Positions 48,494 through 56,354 of a stretch of 64,000 nucleotides of DNA are shown here, piece by piece. How positions within the stretch are numbered: the stretch's first letter is position 1; every line of letters begins with the position of its first letter. Where the stretch lies: NCBI GenBank assembly GCA_951406725.2, contig OX597835.1, forward strand, positions 35,712,001 through 35,776,000, read 5' to 3'. The notes under the pieces were generated by a model that saw nothing but the letters and a program-made list of their open reading frames with translations, searched no databases and had not been told where the DNA came from. Source of the stretch: Octopus vulgaris (Eukaryota). A program made the position numbers and the translations under genes.

Positions 48494-49025
48494 ACCATTC
48501 ATTCTTCCTTTCTCTGATCGTCGTATAAATAATTTGCATATACTAAGTACACGCGTAGTTGCGTTTCTTCTTGTCTTTTTATCCGCTTTTTTTTAATTAC
48601 TATTTTCCACACGCTCACAAGAAATGCTTTCTACTATCGCGAACTCTTTGTACCATCGAATTACATTACGTTATTCATTCGGAGTGCGCCATTTCTTCAT
48701 CATGATTATATATATTTATACATATGCATATATATATATAATGTATATGTATGCATGTGTATGTGTGTATATACACTCAATATATATATATATATATAAT
48801 TAATCAATATAGGGTGGCAAAAAAAATTTTGTAGAATTCTTTTGCCACCAGCGGCCAAGTGGGAAAAAATTAAATAGTCATAGACCATTTTTAAGTTCAA
48901 CATCAACAATCAAGGAACGGCCATAATAGGCCATTCACCCACTAGAAATAACAGCCAAAGCTTCAACCGCAAATAAAAATTAATTCCGTAAACCAGGAGA
49001 AAATTTAAAAAACATTTACCTTGTA

Positions 49026-49132
49026 ATTTCTTATACGATATACCGTTTCATCTGCTGATTAATGGTAAACTAACCTGATTAAATTAAATCAAGCCAATCT
49101 TCCAAAGGCCCTCAGATTCTTCAGTAAGAAAT
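49026..49132 (-). ncRNA. Type I hammerhead, unit 1
   Basis: rc: ATTTCTTA-CTGAAGA-ATCTG-(58 nt)-CAGAT-GAAAC-GGTATATC-GTA-TAAGAAAT. Confidence 0.9.
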
Positions 49133-49518
49133 AGCCCAAGTCGGAACAGATATTTTCACGAGGCAAATCCGACCTTGCCAAGGTTATATCTGACCTAAAA
49201 TTTTCAAATCGTCGCACTCGCGCCAAAATTTATCGGCAGCAAATAAATATAAGCCGTCGATTCCATTACGGAATTAACCAGAAAATTCATAATTAATCAA
49301 TATAGGGTGGCAAAAAAAATTTTGTAGAATTCTTTTGCCACCAGCGGCCAAGTGGGAAAAAATTAAATAGTCATAGACCATTTTTAAGTTCAACATCAAC
49401 AATCAAGGAACGGCCATAATAGGCCATTCACCCACTAGAAATAACAGCCAAAGCTTCAACCGCAAATAAAAATTAATTCCGTAAACCAGGAGAAAATTTA
49501 AAAAACATTTACCTTGTA

Positions 49519-49625
49519 ATTTCTTATACGATATACCGTTTCATCTGCTGATTAATGGTAAACTAACCTGATTAAATTAAATCAAGCCAATCTTCCAAAG
49601 GCCCTCAGATTCTTCAGTAAGAAAT
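49519..49625 (-). ncRNA. Type I hammerhead, unit 2
   Basis: Same sequence as unit 1. Confidence 0.9.
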
Positions 49626-50012
49626 AGCCCAAGTCGGAACAGATATTTTCACGAGGCAAATCCGACCTTGCCAAGGTTATATCTGACCTAAAATTTTCAA
49701 ATCGTCGCACTCGCGCCAAAATTTATCGGCAGCAAATAAATATAAGCCGTCGATTCCATTACGGAATTAACCAGAAAATTCATAATTAATCAATATAGGG
49801 TGGCAAAAAAAATTTTGTAGAATTCTTTTGCCACCAGCGGCCTAGTGGGAAAAAATTAAATAGTCATAGACCATTTTTAAGTTCAACATCAACAATCAAG
49901 GAACGGCCATAATAGGCCATTCACCCACTAGAAATAACAGCTAAAGCTTCAACCGCAAATAAAAATTAATTCCGTAAACCAGGAGAAAATTAAAAAAAAC
50001 ATTTACCTTGTA

Positions 50013-50119
50013 ATTTCTTATACGATATACCGTTTCATCTGCTGATTAATGGTAAACTAACCTGATTAAATTAAATCAAGCCAATCTTCCAAAGGCCCTC
50101 AGATTCTTCAGTAAGAAAT
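50013..50119 (-). ncRNA. Type I hammerhead, unit 3
   Basis: Same sequence as unit 1. Confidence 0.9.
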
Positions 50120-50505
50120 AGCCCAAGTCGGAACAGATATTTTCACGAGGCAAATCCGACCTTGCCAAGGTTATATCTGACCTAAAATTTTCAAATCGTC
50201 GCACTCGCGCCAAAATTTATCGGTAGCAAATAAATATAAGCCGTCGATTCCATTACGGAATTAACCAGAAAATTCATAATTAATCAATATAGGGTGGCAA
50301 AAAAAATTTTGTAGAATTCTTTTGCCACCAGCGGCCTAGTGGGAAAAAATTAAATAGTCATAGACCATTTTTAAGTTCAACATCAACAATCAAGGAACGG
50401 CCATAATAGGCCATTCACCCACTAGAAATAACAGCCAAAGCTTCAACCGCAAATAAAAATTAATTCCGTAAACCAGGAGAAAATTTAAAAAACATTTACC
50501 TTGTA

Positions 50506-52519: not shown

Positions 52520-52900
52520 TTCTTTTACTTCTTTCAGTCATGCCGGAGCACCGCATTTAATCGAACAAATCGAGTCCAGGACTTATTCTTTGCAAGCATA
52601 TTACTTATTTTATCGGTTTTTTTTTTTGCAGAACTTCTAGGTTGCAGGGACGTAAACACATCAACATAGGTTGTCAAGTGATGGTGGGGTGATAAATACA
52701 GGTACTCTCACAAATACCCACACACACACATGTGTATACGGTGGGCTTCTTTCAGTTTCCGTTTACCAAATCTACTCAGAAGGGTTTGGTCAGCCTGAGG
52801 CTATAGTAGAAGACACTGGCCCAGGTGCCATGTAGTGGGACTGAAACCGGAAACATGTGGTCGGGATCTAAGCTTCTTACCACACAGACACGCTGCGCCT
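52520..52900 (-). mobile_element. SINE family B
   Basis: rc collinear with 13713-14119. Confidence 0.8.
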
Positions 52901-53749
52901 ATACACATATATTTGTGTGTATATGTATGTATATATATATATATATATATATGTGTGTGTGTGTGTGTGTGTGTATAAATATGTTCATACGCACATGCAC
53001 AAATACATACATACATATATGCATATATATATATATATATATATATATATATATATACGTTTAAATATTTGTTGTGCAAGATTTTTTATGTGAAGTCGTG
53101 TGTTGAAACAGATATTGTTATATTTCGGAATGGTCATATTGCCAGTTTAGCCAATAAAAACACACGCACTATATATTTGGTGTTATTTTGCTTCAGTGAT
53201 ATTTATTTTTCACATTAATCTTAATCTTATTTCGGCCAAAGTTCTTTCGTCACACTCCTGTGACCGCATCAGTGGTCCTTTGTTTTCTTCTCACTTACTT
53301 GTGTCTGTCCTTACTAACCGTCAGCCATTTTGTATTTCTATTGTATGTCTTCATTTGCGCATGCTTATATCTCTATGTGCGTCTATGTTTATTTAGTGTG
53401 TGTGTGGGGGGGATGCCTGTAATATTTGTATCTTCTGGTTATATACATTCTTGTAATTTCTATTTTGTTTTTGTTGTTGCTTTTGTTCTAATTTTGTTCA
53501 TGTGTTTACATCCACCTATTATTATCATTACATATGCTTGTATGTATGTATAACAACAATATTAGTAATAATAATAATAAATCTAATCGAAAAAAAAAAA
53601 AAAAAAAAATATACATATACATATATATATATACATACATATACATATACATATATATACATATATACACACATATATACACATATAGATATTCATTTCT
53701 ATTTCTTTAATTACCTGTGTATTTATTATGTTTGCAGGATCCACTATTG

Positions 53750-55207
53750 TCATATGTTGTGGTGTGCGCTATTGCTCCATTCTAGTTTTCTATTCAGGCT
53801 AGGTTTATTTTCTATTATATGTGTAGCTTCTGTAATTTGTCTAATTGTTGCATCTGTTCTATGTGTGGACAATATCTTAATCTCTATGTTATTGATTGAT
53901 CCCCCGTGTTCTTGTTCGGCGTGTTGGTACAGAATCGATGAGCTTTTACCTTCCTTGAGTTGTCTCCAATGTCCATTCACCCGCTCACCAATGCTTCTTG
54001 CAGTTTCCCCTACGTATGTTACTGTCTTGTTACTGCATCGTCCCTCTATACATCTTATACTATAGACCACATTTCTGGCTTTACAGTTCGTTTGTGGGCT
54101 AAATCTACATACAGTGCAATAGTTATCCGTACAGAGAGTTCTACTAAAAGGATAGCTTCTACCAATTATAGATCTGATAGGATTGCCTGGCTTTTCAACA
54201 ACCTTAATTCTTAGTTTAAGTTTATCTAGGGTCCTTCTAAAGCGGTACGCTAGTTCACCTCCAGGGGTGGTGTCAACGAACATGACACTCTGGTATTTAT
54301 GGCTATCATACCAAGAGTTGGCCTTCCCTATTTTCTTTTTTGTCCTTTCTATAGTGTTCCATGACTTGTTCCTATAGAGTGGGCAAATCCCATTCCTATC
54401 ATTACATAATATATTATCAAATTTCTTCATGGCTCCTTTGTATCCTTTCTTTATGGCTGTAACCTGAGAACTGCATGCGGTGAATGAAATACTGTATGTG
54501 TCTCTTTAATTCTGTAGGCTCGCACATGCGTGACACATTTCTCATTATTCTGACGAGGTCTGCCATCAAAATATTGAATTTGGCATTGCCCGCAATGGCT
54601 GAGTTCCGGTGGATCAGGTATTTTGAGGCCATAGGTTTTGCATAGTATGAATGAAGGATTTGGGTTTTATTTTTCACAATTTCTAGCCAGAGTTCAGTGT
54701 CTAGTACTGGTAGTCTATGGTTGGGGTGTTTAGTGGGGTAGTCTATTGTGACCTTAATACTCTGGTGGATGGAGTTAGCTATTTGCTGGATGCTCTCCAT
54801 AGTATTAGTTTCTATTACTATATCAACAGTACTCTCTTGTGGGGGTGCCTTTACTACTATATTGATATCATCAACATAGCGAGAGTACATGTTTACGAGT
54901 ATGGATTTCTGCAGTAGGCATTCTTTAAGCCTTCTGTCCCACCATACCATGAAGAGGTTGGCCACATCACCAGCGATACTAACACCGATGGCTGCCCCCT
55001 CGTCCTGGGCATATATTTTATTATTAAATTTAAATGTGTGGCCTTTTAGGGTAACTCTTATACTAGCTCCTAGTGCATGTGCGATCATTTTCTTTACCTG
55101 ATGGACATTTGCGGGGCTCCGTATGGCTCTGGTCCATCCGCGCCATCTTTCTATATGTGTCTTCCTAGCCATAGAAGTAATTGTAGGCGGTCTACCTCTT
55201 AAACATC
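53750..55207 (-). pseudogene. PLE reverse transcriptase-GIY-YIG endonuclease ORF (5' truncated, one frameshift near 54440)
   Basis: YAQDEGAAIG, YSRYVDDI, LPVLD, YAKPMAS; Cys linker CTDNYCTVC..C; NVVYSIRC..YVGETARSIGERVNGH..EATHI..PSLN. Confidence 0.93.
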
Positions 55208-55745
55208 TAGAAAATAAACCTAGCCTGAATAGAAAACTAGAATGGAGCAATAGCGCACACCACAACATATGACAATAGTGGATCCTGCAAACATAATAAA
55301 TACACAGGTAATTAAAGAAATAGAAATGAATATCTATATTTGTGTATATGTGTTTATATATTTATATATATGTATATGTATATGTATGTATATATATATA
55401 TGTATATGTATATTTTTTTTTTTTTTTTTTTCGATTAGATTTATTATTATTATTACTAATATTGTTGTTATACATACATACAAGCATATGTAATGATAAT
55501 AATAGGTGGATGTAAACACATGAACAAAATTAGAACAAAAGCAACAACAACAAAAACAAAATAGAAATTACAAGAATGTATATAACCAGAAGATACAAAT
55601 ATTACAGGCATCCCCCCCACACACACACTAAATAAACATAGACGCACATAGAGATATAAGCATGCGCAAATGAAGACATACAATAGAAATACAAAATGGC
55701 TGACGGTTAGTAAGGACAGACACAAGTAAGTGAGAAGAAAACAAA

Positions 55746-55790
55746 GGACCACTGATGCGGTCACAGGAGTGTGACGAAAGAACTTTGGCC
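55746..55790 (+). ncRNA. Variant hammerhead-like motif in the PLE 3' repeat (mirror at 53234-53278 -)
   Basis: CCA-CTGATGC-g-GTCAC-aggagt-GTGAC-GAAAG-aa-CTT-TGG; A9 replaced by C. Confidence 0.6.
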
Positions 55791-56354
55791 GAAATAAGAT
55801 TAAGATTAATGTAAAAAATAAATATCACTGAAGCAAAATAACACCAAATATATAGTGCGTGTGTTTTTATTGGCTAAACTGGCAATATGACCATTCCGAA
55901 ATATAACAATATATATATATATATATATATATATATATATATATATATATATATATATATATATATATATAGAGAGAGAGAGAGAGAGAGATAGATAGAT
56001 AGATAGATAGATAGATAGATAGATAGATAGATATCAGATGCATAGATATAAATAATATATATATATGCATATATACATACATATATCTACATACCTACAT
56101 ATATATGTATATATACATGCACATGTAGGCACAGGACATAAAAAAAAACGTAGGCAAAATGAGAAACGAGAACATTGAAAACAAAAACAGAAAACGAACA
56201 TTTTGCGAAGAACGAAAAAAACAAACAGAGAAACCAGACATGCAACATAAAGAATATTCCCTTCATCAGTTGTCCCTTGTTTTATTTAGTTCGCGTTTTC
56301 TACGGTAAGGACAAGACGCGACTTCGTTAAGACAGTCCTTCCCGCAAAACAAAT

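Follow-up and report, generated by a model that had tools for sequence, protein, structure and literature searches.

Insertions of a candidate non-LTR retrozyme family of Octopus vulgaris carry the two-site signature of Penelope-like elements

RESULTS

Two neighboring insertions with outward-facing 3' ends

We analyzed a 64,000-nucleotide (nt) stretch of the Octopus vulgaris genome (GenBank assembly GCA_951406725.2, contig OX597835.1, positions 35,712,001 to 35,776,000), hereafter the window, in which a tandem array of a hammerhead-bearing repeat (Rz) and a truncated Penelope-like element (PLE), here PLE-1, are inserted in separate TA tracts about 2.1 kb apart. Each insertion consists of a long minus-strand arm and a short plus-strand arm joined head to head, with (TA)n outside, as a preliminary description of this sequence had reported; its coordinates were upheld. 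One source assigns a protein matching at 99% identity to this species. Also confirmed was its observation that the arms within each insertion stop at different 3' positions. The Rz arms end at unit position 493 (site B) and at 393, 6 nt beyond site A at 387; the PLE-1 arms, which share 2 nt (TA) at their junction, end at +82 (its site B) and +26 (its site A) relative to the ATG of its open reading frame (ORF). The features of both insertions are given below in window coordinates (RT, reverse transcriptase; UTR, untranslated region; pLTR, pseudo-long terminal repeat).

48707..48796, no strand: target tract of (TA)n type to the left of the Rz insertion
48797..50651, minus strand: Rz long arm, 3.8 tandem 493-bp units (99% alike), running from unit position 118 (5') to site B (3')
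48797..48901, minus strand: Rz tail, site A to site B, about 106 nt long and predicted to form a 13-bp hairpin
49519..49625, minus strand: predicted type I hammerhead of one unit, recurring in each unit, from motif reading and compensatory changes
49617-49611 and 49542-49539, minus strand: hammerhead core CTGAAGA and GAAA, respectively, with the predicted cut after 49527
50650..50651, no strand: head-to-head junction of the Rz arms, 2-nt microhomology (CG)
50650..50976, plus strand: Rz short arm, unit positions 67-393, hammerhead at 50740-50846, ending 6 nt past site A (50970)
50936..50958, plus strand: motif and predicted hairpin directly before Rz site A, resembling the same position in PLE-1 and its relative PLE-3
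50977..51002, no strand: right (TA)n tract of the Rz insertion
53003..53057, no strand: left (TA)n tract of the PLE-1 insertion
53058..55209, minus strand: PLE-1 long arm, 5'-truncated, 3' end at site B
53058..53111, minus strand: PLE-1 tail, site A to site B, about 56 nt, equivalent to the ORF start in tandem copies
53750..55207, minus strand: ORF remnant running from the RT core to the GIY-YIG endonuclease, with an 8-nt deletion near 54444
55208..55912, plus strand: PLE-1 short arm (705 nt) with ORF end, 3' UTR, and pLTR, ending at site A
55746..55791, plus strand, mirrored at 53233-53278, minus strand: putative minimal hammerhead-like pLTR motif with the non-canonical core CTGATGC, a sequence reading
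55876..55912, plus strand: PLE-1 motif, ORF start codon (55887), and site A
55913..55971, no strand: right (TA)n tract of the PLE-1 insertion

Because its 5' half is missing and the 8-nt deletion shifts the frame, the PLE-1 copy in the window cannot itself be a driver of insertion. Contigs from four public DNA runs spanned neither junction nor flank in the window and were uninformative for this locus.

Rz fits a non-LTR retrozyme family

The Rz unit (493 bp, 35% GC, longest ATG-initiated ORF 40 amino acids [aa]) fits a non-coding, hammerhead-bearing family of non-LTR retrozymes. Like the animal retrozymes in the passages available from PMC7229834, it forms tandem, non-coding, low-GC units with a type I hammerhead. 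Its size exceeds the 150 to 450 bp given there, where larger target site duplications are mentioned when present, and falls inside the range of 51 to 972 bp in the text available from a 2026 preprint (10.64898/2026.07.22.740005). The predicted hammerhead combines the core CTGANGA (N variable) with GAAA, and compensatory changes occur in stems I, II, and III across Rz subfamilies and a second family, Rz2. An Rfam scan of the window gave no match at the gathering score, hammerhead included. A hammerhead in each unit, short low-GC non-coding tandems, and dispersed recent copies were all found: at least 701 exact site B junctions genome-wide, together with a median distance of 0.3% between the arms of a locus, mark Rz as dispersed and recently mobile. 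Contigs from three runs, which are only guessed to be RNA, cover the unit; their joint that goes back 493 fits a circle or a tandem alike. Rz2 (L199-L218) is an older retrozyme family, about 75% alike to Rz, with about 2966 candidates, the core CCGATGA, and the same two end sites.

Rz ends are fixed and used one of each

Across the family, Rz insertions end at the two fixed sites A and B and use one of each. We read 80 loci, comprising the 40 best-scoring of 1002 candidates (window included), which were chosen by score and not by flanks, and 40 junction-anchored loci taken from the unpaired exact junctions of C1 and C2 (20 of 86 at site B, 20 of 25 at site A). Among the first 40 loci, 70 of 72 3' ends fell at site A (unit positions 366-393, with 29 ends at 387) or site B (488-493), and (TA)n followed 70 of the 72. 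Two arms were present at 63 of all 80 loci: 59 paired A with B, one paired B with B, none paired A with A, and three had one arm ending elsewhere. The script called 56 of the A+B loci; L144 and L146, with B arms of about 15 nt, and L135, in which a B end is followed by a jump to A, were added by hand, and L126, a possible rearranged B+A locus, was scored as single-armed. Copies elsewhere in the genome, which the preliminary description allowed might lack (TA)n flanks and inversions, have both, and no poly(A) tail appears in the end sequences printed.

Exact-junction searches of the genome agree with these readings. At least 253 A junctions and the 701 or more B junctions were found, with none for reversed controls. 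Among neighboring exact junctions in C1 and C2, all 13 A-B pairs were divergent, and no A-A pair (38 A ends) or B-B pair (99 B ends) was seen. The excess of B over A junctions was considered as a sign of a hidden autonomous element and rejected, being due to subfamily changes at site A.

These data bear on the possibility that the arrays are local satellite growth of solo pLTR monomers, or an assembly artifact, with only TA-rich surroundings in common with a PLE. Local amplification after insertion has been proposed in the available text of the preprint (10.64898/2026.07.22.740005), one locus (L048) has inverted host flanks, and no public contig bridges the window junction, an uninformative result. 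We nevertheless regard such an origin as very improbable given the hundreds of exact junctions against zero in reversed controls. Host flanks and junction are also particular to each locus, the ends are asymmetric, and in many cases both arms are multimeric, with their units in register counted from the fixed 3' ends.

PLE-1 insertions follow the same two-site pattern

The PLE-1 unit is 4546 bp long and contains a 1307-aa ORF that starts inside the pLTR; intact ORFs exist in the genome. This single ORF carries an RT together with a GIY-YIG domain at its C terminus, with YVDD and YVGET motifs that align with those of another octopus family, PLE-2. Pfam placed RVT_1 (E 3e-4) and GIY-YIG (E 2e-3) on the ORF pieces in the window, both under the cut-off, and gave no match at 0.01 for the full PLE-1 protein. 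The family shows pLTR partial tandems, an inverted truncated copy, and a tail, which are hallmarks of endonuclease-bearing (EN+) Penelope-like elements.

Sites A and B of PLE-1 lie at +26 and +82/85 from the ATG. Forty loci of 2443 candidates were read, three of which ran past the fetched stretch. Thirty-five of 37 loci were two-armed and two were single-armed; by hand reading, 33 of the 35 paired A with B, and the other two paired A with an internal AT-rich site. Exact junctions numbered 2334 for A and 1600 for B. Over C1 as far as 194 Mb, the 34 A-B pairs were all divergent, and there were no divergent A-A or B-B pairs among 100 A and 80 B ends. At the hammerhead-like motif of the pLTR, two arms (L060 and L093) start within 2 nt of the predicted cut.

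PLE-1 combines features of several PLE clades

By the parts of Craig 2021 consulted, PLE-1 has in common with the Neptune, Nematis, and Hydra clades a C-terminal GIY-YIG, a CX4CxxC linker, CCHH-type residues, and a (TA)n target. Of the Neptune features, PLE-1 has the C-terminal EN, the CX2-5CxxC linker, and CCHH. However, it mixes a Nematis-length linker, a Hydra-like RW without GxKF, DKS in place of DKG, and an insertion at the position of the IFD (insertion in fingers domain). Seven residues separate CxxC from the next C, like the Nematis rows of Fig. S2 of Craig 2021 in a comparison by eye of four Neptune and three Nematis rows. PLE-1 and five homologues thus have a spacer of 7 aa, compared with 24 in PLE-2 and 25-27 in the published Neptune rows. 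The insertion, 69 aa between RT3 and RT4, gives a span of 132 aa versus 63 in PLE-2. PLE-1 therefore has the reduced linker of Nematis together with the IFD-like insertion that Nematis lacks; canonical PLEs are said to be without the IFD in the portions of PMC8557442 available. Hydra elements, defined by absence of CCHH, a CxCX5C linker, and a length under 3 kb, have the RW motif and GxKF loss in common with PLE-1, which differs from them in its CCHH-type residues and 4546-bp unit, and the Naiad/Chlamys group differs in having an N-terminal rather than C-terminal EN. A long Asn-rich insert occupies the N-terminal part of PLE-1 (L051:3143-7066).

The 7-aa spacer, DKS, absence of GxKF, and IFD-position insertion (roughly 69 aa, conserved) recur in PLE-3 and four metagenomic homologues. 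The ESM Atlas returned unnamed or DUF8422/GIY-YIG clusters and no clade name. The group of PLE-1 and PLE-3 (L051, L219-L221, P0002-P0025) is possibly an undescribed clade of PLEs with a C-terminal EN. As a separate observation, a predicted dynein regulatory complex subunit 6-like host protein (P0024) opens with a 98% match to a portion of the PLE-1 RT, likely an annotation fusion or an exonized copy.

Candidate partner enzymes of Rz

The partner of Rz is probably a PLE, and we compared three octopus families. PLE-3 (L219-L221; 55% protein identity to PLE-1, 384 candidates) has A and B ends and some two-armed copies. PLE-2 (L179-L198) is young, mostly 97-100% identical to the reference copy, and has a 781-codon RT-EN frame, a coding-like upstream region, and a repetitive 3' UTR; GLKF, DKG, and the 24-aa spacer give it the appearance of a typical Neptune. 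In (TA)n it uses A and B sites of its own, and most copies have one arm with TA at both ends.

On three counts PLE-1 fits Rz better than the Neptune-like PLE-2 does. Two-armed insertions made up 32/40 loci for Rz and 35/37 for PLE-1, versus 3/20 for PLE-2, all three A+B. The distance from the predicted ribozyme cut to site A is 132 nt in Rz, 131 in Rz2, 127 in PLE-1, 86 in PLE-3, and 67 in PLE-2. The third is a short motif before site A, for which the evidence is modest and post hoc: over the 45 nt before A, 1-9 of 3000 shuffles did as well as the match of Rz or Rz2 to PLE-1, whichever of the three scorings was applied, and the match of Rz and Rz2 to PLE-3 was weaker (15-150/3000). A pattern derived from this motif gave 10,256 overlapping matches versus 4 in the control; the 69 loci among the matches listed were PLE-1 (35), PLE-3 (17), Rz (16), and one other, the pattern having been built from these same three families. 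The ages of Rz and PLE-1, which the preliminary description had proposed comparing, overlap (arm-to-arm medians of 0.3% and 0.37%); those of PLE-3 (8 loci) and Rz2 (5 loci) were left unused owing to microsatellite noise.

Could Rz instead be moved by a different (TA)n-targeting PLE, either the Neptune-like PLE-2, a Naiad, or a family outside those compared? PLE-2 is young and pairs its own A and B sites at three loci, Rz scores against its site A in two scorings, octopus Naiads favor (TA)n according to the supplement rows seen of PMC8557442, and our GIY-YIG search scored 150 of 6136 candidates. We think this unlikely, since only 3 of 20 PLE-2 loci are two-armed A+B, its cut-to-A distance is short, and Rz2 shows no similarity to it before A (1737-2721/3000 shuffles); the pattern matches listed likewise fall almost wholly in PLE-1, PLE-3, and Rz, though the pattern was built from these. 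Of the earlier proposal of a Neptune-like partner, a (TA)n-targeting GIY-YIG/RT enzyme remains likely, but the Neptune label is not supported for PLE-1, with its 7-aa linker, DKS, and 69-aa insertion.

Proximity of the two insertions was considered as evidence of partnership and rejected. PLE-1 pieces occurred at 4/79 Rz loci and Rz at 0/39 PLE-1 loci, and chance would place at least 6-12 of the 701 Rz copies within 5 kb of a PLE-1. Given this expectation and the 101 (TA)6 tracts in the window, adjacency adds nothing beyond a shared target, as had already been suspected. Rz homology was absent from 30 GIY-YIG loci, except for one nested Rz fragment, and from three PLE-3 loci. At L126, L199, and L217, a single (TA)n tract is faced both by the A end of a PLE-1 and by the end of a retrozyme, an instance of repeated target reuse.

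Both arms likely derive from one RNA

At 57 Rz loci, the distance between arms had a median of 0.3%, versus 1.73% to other loci. Private variants were common to both arms at 18 loci, and same-variant arms were also found in subfamilies 5-10% apart. The nearest other locus was often equally close (median 0.39%), and the young subfamily by itself therefore says little on whether one template was used. No chimeric Rz/PLE two-arm insertion occurred among 80 Rz and 40 PLE-1 loci.

Neither arm was contained in the other at 17/56 Rz and 17/33 PLE-1 loci, and these non-nested arms are therefore not simple fold-back products. One or more ribozyme sites, up to nine, were passed by 118 of 141 Rz arms, and most templates were therefore circular, left uncut, or subject to jumps from one to another. 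Rz 5' ends are densest in the 11-nt window 255-265 (13/141 ends, scan P = 0.003), which starts at the predicted cut; this suggests that some templates were self-cleaved; BLAST edges of arms are accurate to a few nt only. Given the same-variant arms, the non-nested arms, and the cut-site peak, a single RNA probably served as template for both target strands, with copying from two sites. The preliminary description had read both target strands as primed, and they appear so here; that the two end positions are fixed across the family and paired one of each goes beyond it. Fillers at three junctions (L118, L137, and L074) are stuttered short copies of nearby element sequence, suggesting repeated slippage in joining.

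It has also to be asked whether only one arm is target primed, with the second made by self-priming, fold-back, or palindrome correction and cut or switched at the other site. Palindromic head-to-head junctions were interpreted as self-priming in the sections of PMC3846280 consulted, the arms share variants, and at 7/61 Rz junctions the unit positions at which the two arms begin coincide to within 2 nt. Such a route is quite unlikely: it conflicts with the non-nested arms and offers no reason for strict A+B pairing, and the A arm is the longer in 17/33 PLE-1 loci, so that neither site is always first.

DISCUSSION

Proposed insertion of Rz in trans

We propose, with a probability of roughly 60% for the model as a whole, that Rz insertion occurs in trans through the RT/GIY-YIG protein encoded by PLE-1 or by its sister family PLE-3. 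Probably acting as a dimer, this protein would bind one Rz RNA near the motif before site A and nick both strands of a (TA)n tract. One nick would prime cDNA at A and the other at B, each through an AT-rich match of 2-4 nt. The two cDNAs, each with a length independent of the other, would then extend over a template that is circular, multimeric, or self-cleaved and be joined head to head by short microhomology or filler. In the portions available of an in vitro study (PMC11167929), both strands are nicked by a PLE and extended by it, starting at the two RNA sites that delimit the tail.

A number of observations weigh against this proposal. In the same in vitro work, the two strands showed no difference in where extension started, and cleavage by the hammerhead ribozyme (HHR) was dispensable. 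One locus pairs B with B (L048, with inverted host flanks), three arms end at other sites, and our loci are best-scoring or junction-anchored with no random sample. Because two-armed PLE-2 insertions also pair A with B, this pairing cannot name the partner. In global alignment, Rz and PLE-1 score no better than shuffles; the preliminary description, which saw no direct homology between them, was right at that scale but not for the short motif before A. The motif figures themselves are post hoc because the motif was first spotted by eye and the windows picked afterwards. Before site A, Rz also scores against PLE-2 in two of the three scorings (4-5/3000), the comparison of PLE-1 with PLE-3 lacks significance (752-1045/3000), and 8 of 2130 background windows attain the Rz/PLE-1 score. 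The tails differ in length (106 nt in Rz versus 56 in PLE-1) and do not align. Gene conversion between inverted arms could mimic same-variant arms. Finally, the 7 of 61 Rz junctions with arms starting at nearly the same unit position are near-perfect palindromes, more than a permutation mean of 0.8; they would be explained equally by fold-back, by correction of a palindrome, or by the departure of two enzymes from one broken circle.

Relation to known systems

The two-site signature of Rz is the published "tail" signature of PLEs. In the passages at hand of PMC8557442 and PMC3846280, EN+ PLEs likewise show partial tandems, an inverted copy, often a tail at one end, and a pLTR with the ORF start, and their (TA)n bias is linked to the Zn-finger linker. 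The description there is qualitative, with tails of 30-40 bp; here they measure 56 and 106 nt, A+B pairing is counted, and a non-coding passenger is included. Poseidon PAc (available text of PMC11167929) is similar in that both strands are nicked and extended, two internal start sites bound the tail, and a dimer is predicted. In contrast to our findings, no strand-specific start, product-level pairing, or RNA reads beginning or ending at the HHR cut are reported there; Rz breakpoints peak at that cut.

The mobilizer of animal retrozymes earlier rested on co-occurrence and pLTR resemblance. PLEs are named as strong candidate mobilizers in PMC7229834, the searched passages of which contain no inverted arms, two fixed ends, or microsatellite targets. 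The 2026 preprint (10.64898/2026.07.22.740005), as far as its text was available, argues from co-occurrence and pLTR homology in Xenopus that retrozymes are non-autonomous PLE derivatives and gives no insertion anatomy; the data here instead concern end and junction structure, with homology down to a short motif. We found no prior report in the open-access literature of a two-site or inverted insertion footprint for retrozymes, nor did we find reported a retrozyme with the PLE footprint, a count of A+B pairing, non-nested arms of the same variant, or the cut-site peak. With hundreds of young Rz copies bearing a PLE-specific footprint, a named intact candidate protein and its RNA sites can now be assayed. 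The formation of inverted PLE copies, a step that the in vitro work did not settle, is also constrained by the near-strict pairing of A with B and by the non-nested arms.

A more specific scenario is conceivable but doubtful. PLE-1 and PLE-3 would represent an undescribed clade with a telomerase-like fingers insertion, whose asymmetric dimer grips one RNA at two sites so that each target strand is primed from a different one, and retrozyme circles would hijack it through a 30-nt remnant of the pLTR and ORF start. If so, two reverse transcriptases would lap the same retrozyme circle.

Other repeats in the window

Two minimal hammerhead-like motifs, seen by eye in the left flank at 47995-48045 and 48460-48495, are probably pieces of PLE-derived repeats. 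Broken frames on the minus strand at 46988-47469 resemble what we take to be the N terminus of a mariner-type transposase. A common short repeat is present in two copies that are 82-84% alike (47680-47807 and 52730-52856), and 52540-52904 matches 13709-14078 at 76%.

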